Source: Candidatus Latescibacterota bacterium (GTDB lineage Bacteria; Latescibacterota; UBA2968; GCA-2709665). From it: 64,000 bases of DNA. Where the stretch lies: the NCBI GenBank assembly GCA_965116875.1, contig OZ220733.1, forward strand, positions 5,312,001 to 5,376,000, written 5' to 3'. The translations under genes were made by a program, and so were the position numbers. The notes beneath the pieces were generated by a model. That model made no database searches, was not told where the DNA came from, and was given only the letters and a program-made list of their open reading frames with translations. Positions 2,545 to 59,843 of this stretch are shown one piece after another (within the stretch, counting starts at the first letter, position 1; each line of letters begins with the position of its first letter).

Positions 2545-3242
2545 GATTACGCTCCTTCAGGGACTTCCGATATTTCCTGGTCGCATTCCGCACTTAATAC
2601 ACAATGCCAATATAGATTATTGGCTCTCCCGGTGCAAGGTATTCGAGAGTTCGAAAGTTGATACCTTCAGGAATGTCGCCCGACCGACGAGTTCCAAATC
2701 AGACGCCGCTGTGGGAACGCCTGTGGTTTTGAAGGGCGTCGACGATGCACTGCTGTCCAAGAACCGCGGGATTCCTGGAGATGACGTTCGAAAAGTGGAT
2801 TCCTTTCGCGATTATGGACGGCTTTGACCTCGACAACGAAAACCGGGTTGCCATGGGTTCGCGTCTGTTGCAGGGCTTCTCATTCTGAACGGAGTCGAAG
2901 CATCGTTCGCCGCTTCCGTACCGCGCTGGAGTCGGACGTGCTGCCTCTAGGGCGTCGCCATGTGCAGATCGCGGGGGATGATCCCATGCCGCAGTAGATC
3001 CTTCGTCGGCCTGGGGCTTTCTCTACATGAGAAACTGGTCTCAGGCGAAACGGATGCGATTCCTGGACGTCGCACCCAGGCCTCCTCTGGATGACAGTGG
3101 GAAGCAACGTGCTCGGCTATCAGCCAGCATGTCATTCAGAGCGGAGCGAAGATCTGGCCGGTTCATTTCGCCAATGGTTATTGCAAGTCATGTCATTCGG
3201 AGCGTAGCGAAGAATCTCCCGTCTACTATGTTAAAAGTCAAG

Positions 3243-3630
3243 AGAGAACGACAATTTGTCGGCCTCAGATGCTGGGGTTACTCTGCCATTGTTCGTACCG
3301 ATGCGACGCGTTCATTCCGACACGCTCGACGAGCGTGTCGGAATGAACGAAACAGACGTCATTAAGCCTTGAATGGGTTCCCTGCCACACGACAGCAGTA
3401 GGGACCGGGCGTACGGTGTTCTCTTTTGGATGGCCTCAGATGCTCGGTCAACGCTACCAGTCTACTATTCGTAGTCGCCATTTGCAGGCGCTAACATGCC
3501 ATTTATCCGGAGCCGTGCGAGAGCTGGGGGCGAGCAAACTTCATCGACGTAGTACCTGACGGTCTACAAGACGGGAGGCGCCGTCCCCCGTGCTCCACGA
3601 TCAAGAGCGGTGTGGGCGCAGGCATCTGAT
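3243..3630 (-). ncRNA. putative bridge/seek RNA region of the IS110 element
   Basis: ~400-nt non-coding region downstream of the transposase; 3568-3577 reads CTCCCGTCTT on the minus strand, identical to the reconstructed target, inside a GGGGG/CCCCC-closed internal loop; RNA boundaries inferred. Confidence 0.7.
3309..3349. repeat. perfect 20-bp-arm palindrome
   Basis: CGTTCATTCCGACACGCTCG-A-CGAGCGTGTCGGAATGAACG. Confidence 0.95.
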
Positions 3631-3642
3631 GTGACCGGGTGT

Positions 3643-4713
3643 TCAGCCGGCAAAGAGTCCCAACTGATAGGGCTCTCCATTCAGCAAGATCCTGCGCATG
3701 CGGCAAAGCAGGGATCTGGCAACTCCGACGATGGCGTGTTTACCACCGGCACGAACCCTGATGCGTTCATATTTTTCCTGCATCGCGGGATCTTTCTCGA
3801 TCAGGCGCCAGGCCGCCTGGATGAGTAACGCACGCACCATCGGTTTCCCCTGGCGGGTGATACGCCCGTGCCTCACATGCTCTCCCGACGAGTGCTGGCC
3901 GGGCGTCAGCCCCACGTAGGCCGCCAGCGTCCGTGCGTTTTTGAAGCGCGCCACATCCTGCAGCTCCAGGAGGATCTCCATGGCCGACAGGCATCCCACG
4001 CCCGGGATCGACGTCAGGATGGCCACGCGGTCCCGATACGCATCTGTTTCCGCAAGCTGCCACAGCATCCTCGTCTGGCGATGCACCTGCTCACACAGGT
4101 CAGCGTATTGCTCCAGCATGTTCTCGAAGCTCTCCTGCGCATACGGATCTTCCAGATGCACATCGCCAAGTGCGGTCACGAACTTGCCAGACCACCGCCC
4201 TGTCGATTCTTCGGGCATGTCGATCCCCATATACCGCAACTCGGCCTTGATCCGTAGTTGCACACGCACCCGATCCTTGATGAACTGCCGGCGGCGACGA
4301 CTCACCTGGCGGTGGGATCGCTCTTGAGGCGTTGGCACATAGATCGATGACAAGAGGTCCTTCCTCAGATAATCCGCCAGCTTGAAGCTGTCGATGCGAT
4401 CCGTCTTGACCAGGTTCCCACTCTGGCTCGGGATCAGGCTCGGCGGCGTCACACAAGCATCCACACCCATATCGACGAGAAAATCGTACAGCCCGAACCC
4501 GAAATAACCCGCTTCATACACCGCACAGATCTTCTTCGCTTCGCCGTACCGACTCAACAGCTTATCGATCGCCTCTGTTGTGCCTGCGATGCGATTGGAG
4601 AACAGTCGCAAACCATCCTCGTTGAGAATGGTGATGTGCCACTGCTTCCGATGCATGTCGATGCCCACGAAAAGATCCTTGCCCCGCCACGCTTCAACGG
4701 TATACCTTGCCAT
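3643..4713 (-). CDS. IS110 family transposase/recombinase
   Basis: DEDD RuvC-like motifs FVGIDMH, VYEAG, KTDRIDS; C-terminal SIPGVG...AYVGLTPGQHSSG; ATG 4713 with AAGGAGG. Confidence 0.95.
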   Translation of the reverse strand: MARYTVEAWRGKDLFVGIDMHRKQWHITILNEDGLRLFSNRIAGTTEAIDKLLSRYGEAKKICAVYEAGYFGFGLYDFLVDMGVDACVTPPSLIPSQSGNLVKTDRIDSFKLADYLRKDLLSSIYVPTPQERSHRQVSRRRRQFIKDRVRVQLRIKAELRYMGIDMPEESTGRWSGKFVTALGDVHLEDPYAQESFENMLEQYADLCEQVHRQTRMLWQLAETDAYRDRVAILTSIPGVGCLSAMEILLELQDVARFKNARTLAAYVGLTPGQHSSGEHVRHGRITRQGKPMVRALLIQAAWRLIEKDPAMQEKYERIRVRAGGKHAIVGVARSLLCRMRRILLNGEPYQLGLFAG

Positions 4714-5047
4714 CACGAGCCTCCTTGTGAAAGTGTTTGTTGTGGACAACGGCAAAGTATACTCTCACAAGCTGAGGCTCAACTTCATTTTAACATAGTG
4801 ACTTCTGGCTCGTACGTGTAGCATATGGCCTTCATAGACAAATTCGTGCGCGGACGCTCTGCCAGACTTTCCGCCACCTCTCTATAACATTCGGCCGAAA
4901 GTGTAAAGGCCACATTTCGCCAATGGTTGTGGGCGAATTTTCCATCCGTATATTTCGCACACTTTCGCATCTTTCGTTGGTAACCACACCCGCTTTTGGA
5001 CAGGTGTGTCGACGATGAAAGATGCATTGTAAACAGTAGGCAATAAC

Positions 5048-8115: not shown

Positions 8116-8307
8116 AAGGCCCTCGCGGAAGACGGTACATGAAATGCGGGGAGACGGTAGAGGGAAGACGGGAGAAGAAACCCTTGCCGGGTTTGTTTTT
8201 CCTCCTTGCCTTCGGCTCGAGAAGAAACCTCACATGGCAGGCAATCTCTCCCGTCTCCCGTCTTGCGTCTACCCGCCTTTCGCTGAAGGCTGATCGCTGT
8301 TTCTGGC

Positions 8308-10092: not shown

Positions 10093-10139
10093 CCCAAACG
10101 GATCCCGGTAAGTTCTGTACTCTTCCGGAGACGGTAGGG

Positions 10140-10442
10140 ATGTTATTTTCCTGCAGGCGAATTCATCCGGTTGTCGTTTTCGCCCTGGCAGTTTTCACGG
10201 GATACCTTGCGGCTTTTCTGCTTGCCGCTTTCCCCGAACACGATCACGATCACCATCAACAATGTGGCGATCATGATCAACTATGTACTGTCTGCGGCTG
10301 GTTCAACAATCTGAGTATCAGTCTGCCGGCAGTGCTGGTGTTGCAACTCTGCTTTCTGTACTTCAGGCAGGGGTTTTCCTCGTTCCGTTCCCCGCGACTT
10401 TCCCTCCTTCTGCCAGACGGACGCGCACCTCCCGCGTCCTGA
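10140..10442 (+). CDS. DUF2946/CruR-like leader peptide 1 (TM, His-rich, CxxC, C-terminal RAPP)
   Basis: hydrophobic N-terminus, EHDHDHHQQCGDHDQLCTVC, ends PDGRAPPAS. Confidence 0.8.
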   Translation: MLFSCRRIHPVVVFALAVFTGYLAAFLLAAFPEHDHDHHQQCGDHDQLCTVCGWFNNLSISLPAVLVLQLCFLYFRQGFSSFRSPRLSLLLPDGRAPPAS

Positions 10443-10839
10443 TCCATCCTCACGTGTCTTCATGACACGTCCGCAATATAACTCCAACGTTTCTTTCAGT
10501 CGGGTCAACCCGGGTCTGCCCTGAATTGAATCTGTGCATGCGGAATTGCGCCCCTTTTCTGCGTGAGGGTTGACGCTCGGGACCGCGTATCGCGCATTCC
10601 CGCAGTCTCCGGGTCTGGCTACGCCCGCAATGGCGGATAACCGGTCTCGCGGATTCGGGCCTCGGCAACTTACCGGCACATCCGAAGTTGGTCCGCCACA
10701 CAGGCCGAGGGGGAATTCGCGCCCATTTCGGTGGCGGTCACCGCACCGTAGCAGAAAGCGCGGCAGGTTCGGAAGTTACGTTTCCGGTATAACCATTGCT
10801 GTATCCCGGTTTGTCTTGCGCTCAACTGGAGACCGCAGG

Positions 10840-11136
10840 ATGTTTTATTCCTCCAGACGGACTCATCCATCCGCTCTCTTCGCGCTGGCGATATTCGCGA
10901 CCTACCTGGCTGCGTTTCTGGTTGCCGCCTTCCCCGTACACGATCACGATCACCAGTGTCACGATCACGATCAACAATGTACTGTCTGCGCCTGGTTCAA
11001 CAACCTGAGCGTGAGTCTGCCGGCAGTGCTGGTGTTGCAACTCTGCTTTTTGTATTTCAGGCAGGGTTTTCCCTCGTTCCACTCCCTTCGCTCTTCCCTC
11101 CTTCTGCCACAAGGTCGCGCACCTCCGGCGTCCTGA
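10840..11136 (+). CDS. DUF2946/CruR-like leader peptide 2
   Basis: ATG 10840 after GGAG; paralog of leader 1: VHDHDHQCHDHDQQCTVC, ends PQGRAPPAS. Confidence 0.8.
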   Translation: MFYSSRRTHPSALFALAIFATYLAAFLVAAFPVHDHDHQCHDHDQQCTVCAWFNNLSVSLPAVLVLQLCFLYFRQGFPSFHSLRSSLLLPQGRAPPAS

Positions 11137-11452
11137 TCCACCCTCACGTGTCTCTATGACACGTCCTCGGTACTTCCAGGCTTTATTCAAACAGGTCGTT
11201 CCAGATCGACCCTGAATCGAAACCGTGCATGCGGAAATGCGCCTCGGATCTGCACGCGTGTAGACTCCCGGGACCGCGTATCGCCCATTCCCGCATTCTC
11301 CGGGTCTGACTACGCCCGCGCGGGCGTGTATCCGTCAGGGTGATCCGGCATTTGCCCAGCATTCCGGCAATTCCGCAGTTCGTCCACCGCGTCGGCGGAT
11401 GTTCACGCGAGATTCGGGGCGAATTGAGATTCCGGTACACAGGAGAACACAA

Positions 11453-13870: not shown

Positions 13871-13891
13871 GGGCTGATCGTCGAACCTTAG

Positions 13892-14051
13892 CAGCCCGTT
13901 GAAAAAGCCCATCCGGTCTACGGCCGGCCCTTGCGGTCGAAATACTGCGTTGCGCTCCCTCGCCGAATCGTTGGATGGGACTCGGTCGCGCGCCTTGTCT
14001 TCGACCACAATGACTCGGCCTCGCCTGCAGAGCGACTTTATCAACGGACTG
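13892..14051. mobile_element. MITE family 2 copy 1 (160 bp)
   Basis: TIRs CAGCCCGTTGAAAAA / TTTATCAACGGACTG; TTAG TSD at 13888-13891 and 14052-14055; 6 differences from copy 2. Confidence 0.9.
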
Positions 14052-14224
14052 TTAGCATACCAACGGCGAGAAGACCTGCTCGCCTTCCTGCCGATCGGCG
14101 TCCCCGTCGTGCACCCTTTCTGGCATCGCCCGTCGTATCACACGCTCCACAACGCGTGGAATCCAGGTACCCCGAACATCCGCCGTTCGGTTTCCGAAAT
14201 CCGGGACAAGGAGACGCGGACGGG

Positions 14225-26351: not shown

Positions 26352-26992
26352 CACAACTGTCCAATAACCGGTTTGATTCACTACGTAGGCCGGGAAAGTG
26401 CGCAAAATAAACGGATGGAAAAACCGTCCACAGCCAGGGCGAAATGTATCCTTTACAAGTGAGCGCAAATGCTATGCAGGGGAGGCCGATAGGCTGGCCA
26501 GTTGTTCGCGCACAAGTTCTTCTACAAAGGGCGCGTACTAAACGTACATTCGAGAATAAGGGAGATTCTTCGCTGCGCTATGATTGGCATATCTTGCGAT
26601 AACACATTGGCGAAACGTGTCGGCCAGGTGACGGCAAAAACTGTCATCCAGAGGAGGCCTGGGTGCAACATCCACGAAGTGCATCGGTTTCACTTGACGC
26701 CAGACTTTCATCCAGGGCCGGCACTCAGGCCGACGAAGGATCTACTGCAGCATGTGATTATCCTTGTGCGGTTTTCACATTTCGATACCTGAGAGGCAGC
26801 ACGTGCGCCACCAACGCGGGACGGAAGCGGCGAACGATGCTTCGACTCCGCTTAGAATGCCAAGTGTTGAAAAAAACGCGAACCCCTGGCAACCTGATTT
26901 TCGTTAACCAGGTCAAACCCGTCCAAAATCGCCAATAGAATCCACTCTCCGAACCTCATCTCCAGGAATCCCCCGGTTCTTGGACAGCAGTG
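26352..26992 (-). mobile_element. MITE family 1 copy B (641 bp)
   Basis: TIRs CACAACTGTCCAATAACCGG / CCGGTTCTTGGACAGCAGTG (17/20); degenerate 9-bp flanks GGTCAATAA / GGGCAATTT. Confidence 0.85.
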
Positions 26993-27785: not shown

Positions 27786-27985
27786 TAGGGTCCCCCCACC
27801 GCATCAGCCGTCGCCGGTCCCTTCGGCCCTTCGACAATCCTTCGGCAGGCTTGCTTCGACAGGCTCAGCACAAGCAGGACAACGGCTCAGGGACCGCTGG
27901 CTCAGGGCAAGTGTCAGGGGACCGGCTCGGCTTCTGCGACTCCCCCTCAAGGGGGGAGTAATCCGGAGGCGCTGCGAGCCGAGGC
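27786..27985. repeat. composite palindromic repeat (CCCCCCACC...CTCCCCCTCAAGGGGGGAG) with nested CTTCGACA units
   Basis: hairpin CTCCCCC-TCAA-GGGGGGAG; several nested REP half-units. Confidence 0.65.
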
Positions 27986-28212
27986 GGGCGAATGTCAGGC
28001 CGAGCATTATTCGATTTGCTTGTGAAACGCTGCCGTGGCGCGACGTTCTCGACGACGGCGGGGATGAACACAACATCAACCCGCGATCGAGGCGAGTACG
28101 CAACCATCAGATCAATCCTATTACCGGACGCGATGCGTCTGTAAGGTACTTTATTGGGACACCAGGTTTAACACATCGACGCCGAACGTGTCCGTCGATA
28201 CGCAACCCTTAG

Positions 28213-28372
28213 CAGCCCGTTGAAAAAGACCATCCGGGCTACGGCCGGCCCTTGCGGTCGAAATACTGCGTTGCGCCCCCTCGCCGAATCGCTGGATGGG
28301 ACTCGGTTGCGCGCCTTGTCTTCGACCACAATGGCTCGGCCTCGCCTGCAGAGCGACTTTATCAACGGACTG
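28213..28372. mobile_element. MITE family 2 copy 2 (160 bp)
   Basis: same TIRs as 13892-14051; TTAG TSD at 28209-28212 and 28373-28376. Confidence 0.9.
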
Positions 28373-28377
28373 TTAGG

Positions 28378-35276: not shown

Positions 35277-35516
35277 CGAATTTACCCCCGCCATCTTGAC
35301 GAAACGAAGTCTCATTCAACCACGTTAGTTGGTGCGATCTGTTTCTTTCGCTGCTGATTGCTCCCACTGTGGTATTGTCAATGAGATACCCTGCCCCTTC
35401 CACGCTTCGACAATCCTTCGACAGGCTTGCCGCGACAAGCCACTTCGACAAGCTCAGTGCAAGCAGCACAGGCAGAGCAAGTGCTCAGGGCAGCGTCTTC
35501 GACTCTTCGACTACAT

Positions 35517-35974: not shown

Positions 35975-36611
35975 CACTGCTGTCCGAGATCGGTGAGATT
36001 CTCAGAGAAGAGGTCGGGCAAGAGGCTTCGATTGGCGATATAGTACGGGCTGAACCTGGATCATGCAAATCAGGTTGCCATGGTTTCGGTCTTGTTGCAA
36101 TTCATGTCACTCAGATTGGAGTCGAAGCATTTTTCGCCGCTTCCGTCCCGCGCTGGGGCCGGACGTGCCGCTTCTCAGGTATCGATACGTGCAAACCGAA
36201 CGGGGATAATCCCATGCCGCAGTAGATCCTTCGTCGGCCTGCTCTGCATGGCAGTGTGCTCTTACGTGTAACGGACGCGTTTCGCCGACGTTGTACGCAG
36301 GCCTCCTCTGGATGACAGTATTGGCGAAGGTGTGGGCTACGCGTTTCACCAGTGGCTATTGCGAAACATGTCATTCTGAGCGGAGTCGAAGAATCTCCCG
36401 TATTCTCGATTGGACGTGTCGCACATGCCCGTTGAAGACGAACCTGTGCGCGGACGTCTGGCCAGTCTTTCGGCCTCTTCTGAAGTACATTCGGGCTAAG
36501 GTGTGAAGGATACATTTCGCTAATGACTGCGGACGATTTTTCCATCGTCCGGACACTTCGCGCACTCTTGCGAATTTCGTAGTGAATCAAACCCGTTTTT
36601 GAACAGGTCTA
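35975..36611 (+). mobile_element. MITE family 1 copy C (637 bp)
   Basis: starts CACTGCTGTCC, ends TTTTGAACAGGTCTA; degenerate flanks CTTCACTAT / CTTCGTGAT; colinear with copies A and B. Confidence 0.8.
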
Positions 36612-47809: not shown

Positions 47810-48162
47810 AGTTCTTACCTGTCTGGAAGTGGATTTCGTCTGAGGATATTGCAGGTAGCGAGCTTATAGTTTACATCCTCCCCTGCCGCCGCTCCGCTTG
47901 TCGAAGCGGTCGTTAAGCCAGTCGAAACGTGGTCACTGAGCATGCCTGCATTGAGCTTGTCGAAATGTCGAAGTGCCCGCGTTTCGACGTCCTTTTTCCT
48001 TCGCCGACCCTTCGACCCTTCGACAGGCTCAGGGACCGCAAGCTCAGGGAGCGGCTCAGGGTGCCCGGTCAATATTGTGGTAAAAGGTAAATTACCGGGT
48101 GCTCCCCGCAATACCTGTCTGGATAGGGATTATGTCGAAAGTTAAGAGACCATCCTGGAAAT

Positions 48163-59043: not shown

Positions 59044-59700
59044 TCAGTTTCTAACGGCAAAGAAAAAGGGATGCACCTCTATCTGCCCATCTACGTCCGC
59101 ACGCCCGCCTCCCACAATCCCTTCCTGTTCAACCTCAAACCCGGTTTCATGGAGAATCTTCCTGTACGTCTCAGGGCCAAAGTTGCTCCAGTACATGGTC
59201 TCGCCGTAGAAGTCGTCTTCAGTATATCCCGGTCCGTCGTCATACCTTGCAACTGTAATCAGAAGGAGGCCACCGGGCCGGAGCCACCTTGCGAATCGCT
59301 GAAATAGTTCCCGATGCTTCTGCCGCGGGATATGGAAGACGGAGTAATAGCCGACTATGGCATCAAAACTGCGATTTGGGAATTCGGTCTCCATAACGTC
59401 GGCGTGGATGAACCTGGCGGTAGGGATGTTTTTCCTGGCCATGGCGATCATGCTGGAAGAGATGTCGATCCCTGTAACTGAAAAATTATCAGCAAGTTCC
59501 TTCACAACGGGGACACCTGAGCCACAGCCGACGTCAAGAATCCTTGAACCCGGTTCCATGCGCTCCGCGATCAGGTTGAGTTCCGCCCCGGCCCTGGCGC
59601 TACGTTGGCTCGCATATTCCATCGCGCATCGGTCATAGGCCGCCCTGACAAACGCTCGATAATCGACCTGGGGATCGTCTGCAATCTTGAATGACATCAC
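59044..59700 (-). CDS. class I SAM-dependent methyltransferase
   Basis: ILDVGCGSG, WLRPGG. Confidence 0.9.
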   Translation of the reverse strand: MMSFKIADDPQVDYRAFVRAAYDRCAMEYASQRSARAGAELNLIAERMEPGSRILDVGCGSGVPVVKELADNFSVTGIDISSSMIAMARKNIPTARFIHADVMETEFPNRSFDAIVGYYSVFHIPRQKHRELFQRFARWLRPGGLLLITVARYDDGPGYTEDDFYGETMYWSNFGPETYRKILHETGFEVEQEGIVGGGRADVDGQIEVHPFFFAVRN

Positions 59701-59843
59701 ACCTGCCTTAAAACGGATTTGATTGTCTATGAAAATCGTGAAGGTGCACGAAACATACGGATGGGAAAATGGTCCACAGCAATTGGCGAAACGAGTCGGT
59801 CCTGCCTTCGCTCTGAGAATTCCACGGTTTCTGGACAGCAGAG
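59698..59843 (-). mobile_element. MITE family 1 minimal copy E (146 bp)
   Basis: minus strand starts CTCTGCTGTCCAGAAACC, ends AAGGCAGGTGTG; body matches the 3' part of copy D; internal REP modules absent; no TSD. Confidence 0.7.

Follow-up and report, generated by a model that had tools for sequence, protein, structure and literature searches.

The locus described here raises the question of how an apparently RNA-guided insertion sequence (IS) came to lie within a palindromic module that is itself part of a MITE (miniature inverted-repeat transposable element), and whether these parts have moved independently or together. It is located near the start of a 64,000-nucleotide stretch of DNA (the window) from a Candidatus Latescibacterota bacterium. 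The window corresponds to G000:C1:5312001-5376000, where G000 denotes a single-contig genome of 5.45 Mb with 59.6% G+C. Other genomes are designated G0xx, the MITE copy under study at window positions 2748-5008 is called W, and an empty copy at positions 964141-964761 of the genome is called A. An initial annotation of the window had described W as a three-level nested mobile structure, in which a MITE carries repetitive extragenic palindrome (REP)-like modules and the last module is interrupted by an IS110-family element. It had also proposed that the MITE spreads landing pads for the IS and could carry it as cargo.

Our analysis indicates that the locus very probably records two independent insertions stacked at one place, namely a MITE and, presumably later, an IS1111-type IS whose site was selected by a guide. 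In the first step, a MITE of ~680 bp would have been inserted by cut-and-paste DDE transposition into the intergenic sequence TCGACGATG, duplicating 9 bp. The termini of this element would derive from an IS4-family IS, and its interior would be a cluster of REP-like palindromic modules. In the second step, the IS would have been integrated by its DEDD recombinase at the CT core of the sequence CTCCCGT-CT-TC (hyphens set off the core), just 3' of the palindrome of the last module. Site choice would depend on base-pairing with a guide in an RNA from the 3' non-coding region of the IS itself, termed a seekRNA or bridge RNA.

A MITE with a genuine target site duplication

The element at positions 2748-5008 is bounded by terminal inverted repeats (TIRs) and lies between perfect 9-bp copies of TCGACGATG at positions 2739-2747 and 5009-5017, exactly as initially described. 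The orthologous locus is present in 14 of 14 congeners. Three of them (G006, G007 and G009) have an empty site of the form ...ttgaaggg[c/t]g TCGACGATG a[a/g]agatgca..., in which the element is missing and the 9-mer is present once. Because these three congeners carry a single 9-mer without the element, the duplication is a genuine target site duplication (TSD) and not a chance repeat, which answers the call in the initial annotation for an empty-site comparison. In G002 and G010, the orthologous locus contains a different insert of ~270-300 bp a few bases upstream, and the remaining nine congeners are not alignable across the joint.

The left TIR, CACTGCTGTCCAAGAACCG (2748-2766, plus strand), is identical in nine other genomic copies and matches the left end of an IS4-family element in the congener G011, CATTGCTGTCCAAGAACCG. 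The right TIR reads CACACCTGTCCAAAAGCGG in reverse complement (4990-5008, minus strand). The TIRs are imperfect, with 14 of 19 nt matching between the two arms, and they are conserved across copies of the family; those of W match the family consensus at 19/19 and 18/19 positions. The IS divides the MITE into a 5' part (2748-3222, plus strand) and a 3' part (4802-5008, plus strand). The first ~106 bp of the 5' part are homologous to the IS4 element (72% identity to its positions 1-106) and are followed by the REP-like cluster. The 5' part aligns with other copies of the family, and nhmmer matches it to positions 1-424 and 364-438 of the family hidden Markov model (HMM). The 3' part opens with the second copy of the CT core, followed by the right half of the IS target (CT-TCTGGCTCGTACGTGT), and matches HMM positions 434-640. 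Without the IS, W is 682 bp long, and only short open reading frames (ORFs) are present across the element.

Searching the genome with BLASTN and with an nhmmer profile of ten copies returned 91 matches. These include 13 two-ended copies that range from 146 to 727 bp, with about a dozen more that are truncated. The 9-mers that flank the two-ended copies agree at seven or more of nine positions in 7 of the 13, and are perfect in four (D, E, G and W), compared with a probability of 0.0016 for agreement at this level between random 9-mer pairs at the same spacing. Searches detected the family in each of the 14 congeners, and in 0 of 16 genomes from outside the genus. All five members initially described for the window are present. 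These are W, a 641-bp copy at 26352-26992, a 637-bp copy at 35975-36611, a copy at 38570-~39194 that has lost its right TIR, and a 146-bp copy at 59698-59843 whose TSD is no longer present. Given its TIRs, verified TSD, small size, non-coding content and multiple copies, the element is a true MITE, and it represents a newly recognised, IS4-derived family. An Rfam match to mir-981 over the MITE end (20.3 bits versus a threshold of 51) was taken as chance.

A complete IS110-family element of the IS1111 type

The IS spans positions 3223-4801 on the minus strand and is 1,579 bp long including one CT core, with the second CT at 4802-4803. Its boundaries were established from the empty copy A, in which the sequence CTCCCGTCTTC is uninterrupted, and from a comparison of the six copies in the genome. 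The five other copies are 87-89% identical to the IS in W, which is a singleton variant with no donor of the same variant elsewhere in the genome. All six copies have CT on both sides (AG in the orientation of the transposase gene) within the sequence CT[C/A]CCGT-CT-TC.

The transposase gene (3643-4713, minus strand) codes for a DEDD protein of 356 amino acids from an ATG start codon, or 370 amino acids from an upstream TTG. The protein matches PF01548 (73 bits), PF02371 (97.9 bits) and NF033542 (222.5 bits versus a cut-off of 140), and it retains every column that is invariant among 20 homologues. The segment GLTPGQHSSG corresponds to the GL-P----S(t)G motif, of which residues G268, L269, P271 and S275 do not vary among 20 homologues. 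Perfect 12-bp subterminal inverted repeats (sTIRs) are formed by ACTATGTTAAAA at 3225-3236, on the right-end (RE) side in transposase orientation, and TTTTAACATAGT at 4788-4799, on the left-end (LE) side, and a relative in the genome G058 has the same sTIR. Downstream of the gene lies a non-coding region of 418 nt (3225-3642, minus strand), which is the predicted source of the seekRNA or bridge RNA, compared with 88 non-coding nt upstream of the ATG (4714-4801). The downstream region includes a near-perfect palindrome of 41 bp (3309-3349; self-match 97.6%).

The IS is a complete IS110-family element, consistent with what the initial annotation had recognised, and its sTIRs, long downstream non-coding region and GL-P----SG motif point to the IS1111 type. 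If the RE and LE are joined through one AG, a -35 sequence (TTGACT) and a -10 sequence (TATGTT) are placed 17 nt apart. This arrangement would fit the junction promoters that form on the circular intermediate of REP-targeting IS110-group elements (PMC12288879).

At E ≤ 1e-60, the transposase has 1,053 homologues, mostly on short metagenome contigs. Its amino acid identity is at most 58% to genome representatives and up to 92% to metagenome proteins. Plasmid-borne IS110-family genes reach at most 39% identity and include no named close relative. The lineage was not found in the 14 congeners at E ≤ 1e-40, and a search at E ≤ 1e-80 of the 130 other genomes of the class recovered it from G058 only.

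Guide and target match across copies and relatives

A target-binding stem-loop is predicted at positions 3515-3590 (minus strand), with an outer stem, an internal loop that presents two guide strands, and an inner hairpin. The T guide, CUCCCGUCUU (3568-3577, minus strand), is located ~65 nt past the stop codon and is identical at 10 of 10 positions to the pad CTCCCGT-CT-T on the plus strand of the window. For a region of 420 nt and a target of 32 nt, with both strands considered, the chance expectation of a 10-nt match is ~0.02. The B-guide slot, GAUGAAG (3539-3545, minus strand), ends in the core AG. A candidate donor-end-matching segment, CGAAUAGUAGAC (3460-3471, minus strand), might correspond to the RE end plus its flank (ATAGTAG+AC); its counterpart in G058, CGAATAGTAGG, matches the RE and flank of that element.

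The match between guide and target covaries within the genome. Both W and the copy IS_1777 have the guide CTCCCGTCTT and the target CTCCCGT-CT-T (10/10), whereas the copies IS_3382, IS_3391 and IS_3415 carry the guide CTACCGTCTT and are inserted in the sequence CTACCGT-CT-T of a different repeat family (10/10). The sixth copy, IS_1775, departs from this pattern and is discussed below. The nearest genomic relative, which is present in two copies in G058 and has 58% amino acid identity, carries TGTCATCCT in the homologous guide slot and adjoins AG-GATGACA, and its B slot, GGCTCAG, is identical to its own left flank.

We also surveyed 45 loci from other phyla, which were recovered with an alignment as query; a single-protein query recovered no relative. 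An RE finder based on ATAGYAG left 27 of these loci evaluable and 18 not. In 14 of the 27 loci, the non-coding region shares a match of 8 nt or more with the right flank of the same element, compared with 22 of 690 non-self pairs. In 13 of these 14 cases the match falls in the homologous slot, and 8 distinct guides are represented, although the loci are not all independent because several come from one genome. Boundary detection by exact inverted repeats returned a repeat in 16 of 45 loci, mostly not the true ends, and was abandoned. Because LE detection in the relatives mostly failed (8 of 12 loci, and unreliable in three of the other four), B-guide pairing is documented for G000 and G058 only.

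The consensus fold for 12 diverse relatives comprises 14 base pairs, with 88% of cells paired versus 78% in shuffled alignments (0/500). Compensatory changes are present in 8 of the 14 pairs, and slid controls are 32-58% paired. The 3' strand of the internal loop always ends in the core AG in the alignment of the 12 relatives. An Rfam search of the element matched no bridge RNA or seekRNA family. Because guide-target identity and covariation are observed in the six copies and in distant relatives, the proposal of the initial annotation that the module provides a landing pad for an RNA-guided element is supported. The sequence evidence suggests that the module site is an RNA-matched landing pad, and that the RNA would be produced from the element and bound by its transposase.

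REP-like modules inside and outside the MITE

The interior of the MITE includes a REP-like palindrome at 3085-3141 (plus strand), in which the arm CTCTGGATGACA (GGATGACA) at 3085-3096 pairs with TGTCATTCAGAG at 3130-3141. The predicted hairpin in the equivalent region of copy A has a modest z score of -1.96. Two units of the form GTCATTC.GAGCG..GCGAAG are present in W. The first, GTCATTCAGAGCGGAGCGAAG (3131-3151, plus strand), lacks the pad and is followed by ATCTGG. The second (3192-3222, plus strand) includes the left half of the pad (...GCGAAGAATCTCCCGT) and is interrupted by the IS. Module sequences are strongly overrepresented in the genome, with 53 occurrences of GTCATTCNGAGCG versus 0.8 expected, 48 of CTCNGGATGACA versus 2.6 expected, and 26 of AGCGAAGAATCTCCCGT versus ~0 expected.

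Module content differs between MITE copies; compared with A, B and C, W contains one additional unit of 74 bp. Sequences that correspond to HMM positions ~185-520 of the MITE are also found alone, without TIRs, in many places. For example, an array of five tandem paralogous ORFs of 790-834 amino acids on the minus strand (G000:C1:1778413-1792854) has modules in every spacer. Two copies of the IS are arranged head-to-tail just upstream of this array (1774058-1775649 and 1776390-1777980). The genome carries a single ORF that weakly resembles a REP-associated tyrosine transposase (RAYT). This ORF of 153 amino acids (G000:C1:2123471-2123932; L035 1195-1656) has an HUH-like PTHVHGLI motif and scores 33.2 bits with NF047646 (cut-off 80) and, over 43 positions, 23.7 bits with PF01797. 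It might represent a RAYT that has been truncated.

Another short type of repeat (CCTTCGACAATCCTTCGGCAGGC... / GGCTCAGGGACCGC...) is found in the window at 27814-27928, 35390-35440 and 48026-48070. The MITE copies D, E and G carry it as an extra module, and it is also part of the inserts that G002 and G010 have at the orthologous locus.

A probable IS4-family source for the MITE

The CA-starting TIRs and 9-bp TSD had suggested an IS4-like DDE element as the source of the MITE, and an IS with the same termini is present in G011. This 1,428-bp IS4-family element (L050 1212-2639) codes for a transposase that scores 272-273 bits with NF033592 (cut-off 115). The ORF carries a Y-x2-R-x3-E-x6-K sequence, which we take to be the signature of IS4-type DDE transposases. 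The element has the termini CATTGCTGTCCAAGAACCGTGGGAT and ...CCGTTTTTGGACAGGTGTG and is flanked by the 9-mers TGCTCGCAG and TGCTGGCAG, which agree at 8 of 9 positions. Identity to the left ends of the MITEs is 69-79% over the first 106 bp of the element, and identity to their right ends is 92-100% over its last 19-25 bp. The IS-derived parts of the MITE are confined to ~106 bp at the left end and ~25 bp at the right end, and the middle ~500 bp are not derived from the IS. We conclude that the G011 element is likely an autonomous relative of the MITE, and that it or a relative would have supplied the transposase.

The search for an autonomous transposase with the same ends thus succeeded in a congener and failed in G000 itself. 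A tblastn search of G000 with the G011 protein gave no match, and all 14 matches to PF01609 (DDE_Tnp_1) in this genome are of the IS1380, IS1182 or IS5 types, with other ends. A scan for paired TIRs returned three long pairs, none of which fits an autonomous partner. One of these (G000:C1:2062163-2064228; 2,066 bp) turned out to consist of an IS1380-family IS within a sister MITE of 362 bp, and the other two enclose non-transposase ORFs and lack a TSD. ISAs1 was considered as a source family and was found in 0 of 15 genomes of the genus. Because the cognate transposase is absent, the MITE appears to be frozen in G000.

Two observations weigh against the G011 element as the direct source. An IS4 partner was found in only 1 of 15 genomes of the genus, and G011 has the fewest matches (7) to the MITE query, so its IS may be merely a relative of the true source.

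Several related structures were encountered in these searches. The pair at 2062163-2064228 represents a second nested case, in which a 1,707-bp IS1380-family IS with a 453-amino-acid transposase (NF033539, 396 bits) lies within the sister MITE; the latter has the same type of TIR and a 7/9 TSD (CCTCAAGAT / CCTCTAGAC). An identical copy of this IS is located at 589797-591503, outside any MITE. At G000:C1:1895929-1897612, 1,684 bp between TIR-like ends of the same type carry an ORF of 108 amino acids resembling a helix-turn-helix (HTH) or antitoxin protein and an ORF of 200 amino acids, with neither a transposase nor a TSD. This region may be a chance pairing of ends or a cargo-bearing derivative. 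Lastly, matches to MITE positions 1-106 in G001 and G009 were tried as IS candidates and rejected. They belong to a MITE of ~290 bp (L024-L028, ~201-490) that shares its first ~106 bp with the family studied here and for which at least 18 copies are listed in G001. Therefore, the genus has several MITE families with common IS4-type ends.

Distribution of landing pads

The C-type pad, CTCCCGTCTTC, occurs 53 times in the genome versus 3.8 expected, and the A-type pad, CTACCGTCTTC, occurs 15 times versus 2.6 expected; six more pads are occupied by the IS. About 10 empty pads lie in REP-like modules, of which one (copy A) is in a two-ended MITE and nine are in clusters that lack one or both ends. 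Approximately 35 C-type pads and most A-type pads are located in a second palindromic repeat family (GGGCAAGG..TTCTTCT[C/A]CCGTCTTCCCTCTACC), and ~8 pads look unique. This second family is unrelated to the module family and hosts three of the six IS copies. One of its members lies in the window at ~8140-8200 (..GGCAAGGGTTTCTTCTCCCGTCTTCCCTCTACCGTCTCCCC..), with an unoccupied C-type pad whose 11-mer is at 8164-8174 on the minus strand.

Among the aligned MITE copies, the exact pad is present in W and A only, which are 2 of the 13 two-ended copies. Copies B and C have variants, and five aligned copies read CCC[G/T]T-AT-TCT, without the CT core. The genome was also examined for other IS-containing MITE copies with different TSDs, and no second composite was found; one of the six IS copies lies in a TIR-bounded MITE. 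Because few MITE copies hold the pad, most pads lie elsewhere, and there is no second composite, the MITE is one minor carrier of the pad among several. These data do not bear out the view that the MITE spreads landing pads and, together with the lack of an IS4 transposase in G000, leave its carriage of the IS as cargo unsupported.

Alternative explanations for site choice and nesting

Several points weigh against target selection by the predicted guide RNA. Pairing on the B side is weak in the module-borne copies (4/7 in W, 5/7 in IS_1775 and 3/7 in IS_1777), compared with 6/7 in the three copies in the other repeat family. IS_1775 pairs an A-type guide (CTACCGTCTT) with a C-type pad at 9 of 10 positions, so recognition tolerates a mismatch or something else contributes. 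Moreover, the single-sequence RNA fold is no more stable than those of shuffled sequences (z = -0.22), and a single alignment served both to predict the consensus structure and to count its pairs. The poor B-side complementarity, along with the position of the insertion beside a palindrome, would be compatible with a recombinase that reads the REP hairpin as a protein alone, the 10-nt identity being incidental. However, this one IS inserts into two repeat families that are unrelated and have in common only CT[C/A]CCGTCTTC, the C/A difference between the targets is mirrored in the guide, and relatives with different guides adjoin correspondingly different flanks. We therefore regard targeting by protein alone as highly improbable. 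A related idea, that the IS clade tracks one REP motif across phyla, was rejected since the flanks in other lineages are unrelated. An RNA-matched landing pad remains the preferred explanation for the position of the IS.

The other alternatives concern how many of the nested parts have moved. The three-level nesting holds as a description of the anatomy of the locus more than as a record of triple transposition, in which the module would be a mobile level of its own. Perhaps the modules are independently mobile elements of the REP type or of the bacterial interspersed mosaic element (BIME) type, served by a RAYT-like enzyme, and one entered a pre-existing MITE before the IS arrived. The modules without MITE ends, as in the spacers of the five-paralogue array, their variable number among MITE copies, including the extra 74-bp unit of W, and the RAYT-like ORF are all consistent with this scenario. 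Yet the ORF is short and scores far below its cut-off, and duplication, deletion or recombination between repeats could account equally well for the variation in modules. This makes the scenario possible, although doubtful. We find it unlikely that the IS entered the MITE elsewhere and that an IS4 transposase then used the TIRs to move a 2.26-kb composite to TCGACGATG. This model agrees with the intact TIRs and perfect TSD of W, and with the singleton IS that lacks a donor of its own variant in the genome. IS4-family transposition is cut-and-paste, and for this reason the missing second composite is not decisive. On the other hand, MITE TIRs enclose only one of the six IS copies, searches of the 14 congeners at the threshold given above did not recover the IS lineage, and neither the PF01609 matches nor tblastn revealed an IS4 transposase in G000. 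Two sequential insertions explain everything that is observed. A contig joint that skips exactly positions 3223-4801 (runs X1-X3) was considered as population evidence and set aside. It is not assignable to this locus because other empty pads exist in the genome and its sides are only 22-54 nt long.

Other repeats in the window

Two additional repeats were noted in the window. Two tandem units of ~694 bp with 75-87% identity (families D2, D5 and D8) are located at 10138-11334, and a 170-bp direct repeat pair with 96% identity lies at 13886-14055 and 28207-28376, 14.3 kb apart.

Comparison with known systems and implications

The closest published parallel is found in Coxiella burnetii, in which the MITE named QMITE2 has TIRs and direct repeats of 7-11 nt (mostly 9 nt) and contains a REP that is the target of IS1111 (Wachter et al. 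2018, BMC Genomics 19:247; PMC5896051). The QMITE2/GTAG REP/IS1111 system has the same three-layer architecture as the present locus. Of its 20 IS1111 copies, likewise only one is inserted in a full-length MITE for which both TIRs are recognisable (PMC5896051). In contrast, the locus described here comes from a different phylum, and its MITE, REP and IS sequences are unrelated to those of Coxiella. The MITE is ~640 bp, and an IS4-family relative of its source is identifiable. Furthermore, the pad lies 3' of the palindrome, and the guide-target match is explicit, with two guide alleles in one genome. Because the MITE > REP > IS1111 arrangement has already been published for Coxiella, the structural finding is a new instance and not a new principle. 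The additions are a new IS, a newly recognised IS4-derived MITE family, and unusually explicit covariation of guide and target within one genome.

The IS resembles the IS1111 group (ISEc11, ISPa11, ISKpn4 and ISPst6), for which seekRNAs have been described (Siddiquee et al. 2024; PMC11187229). Members of this group have a DEDD transposase of 330-350 amino acids with the GL-P----S(t)G motif, sTIRs and, downstream of the transposase gene, a long stretch of non-coding DNA. Their seekRNA matches the target in two short segments, of which the one for the top strand lies 5' of the one for the bottom strand (PMC11187229). The DEDD transposase, the motif, the sTIRs and the downstream region have counterparts here, and the predicted T guide lies 5' of a candidate B slot that ends in the core AG and matches at only 4 of 7 positions. 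The transposase of 356 amino acids is marginally above the size range of the group.

The targeting of REP or BIME sequences by IS110 and IS1111 elements through a bridge RNA or seekRNA is established for IS621, ISPpu9 and ISPa11. IS621 of E. coli and ISPpu9 of P. putida (PMC12288879) are similar to the present element in their site-specific insertion at a core dinucleotide in or beside a REP or BIME. They differ in that they lack inverted repeats and their RNA is upstream of the transposase gene. IS621 and ISCro4 match the transposase at E ~1e-14 only, over the C-terminal domain.

As in other IS4-derived bacterial MITEs, the element has CA-starting TIRs, a 9-bp TSD, non-coding content, multiple copies, and termini shared with a DDE IS, but its interior is a REP-like cluster instead of the remnant of an IS deletion.

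There is an outside chance that the 2.26-kb composite of MITE and IS is, or was, mobilisable in trans by an IS4 transposase, with the guide alleles adding a second route. If so, the cargo route would give a site-restricted, RNA-guided IS a path to arbitrary 9-bp targets that is not restricted by site. One element would then have two orthogonal routes of dispersal, with C-type and A-type guides that span two unrelated repeat families.

The locus provides what appears to be a natural example of how dispersed repeats are located by an RNA-guided recombinase. A C/A substitution at one position of the guide is matched in this genome by a C/A substitution in the target, and it divides the insertions between two repeat families that are unrelated to each other. 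In relatives from other phyla, this guide slot is filled by 8 additional, mutually distinct guides that match the flanks of the elements. Together, these elements would offer a ready set of natural guide and target pairs for a little-studied IS1111-like lineage.

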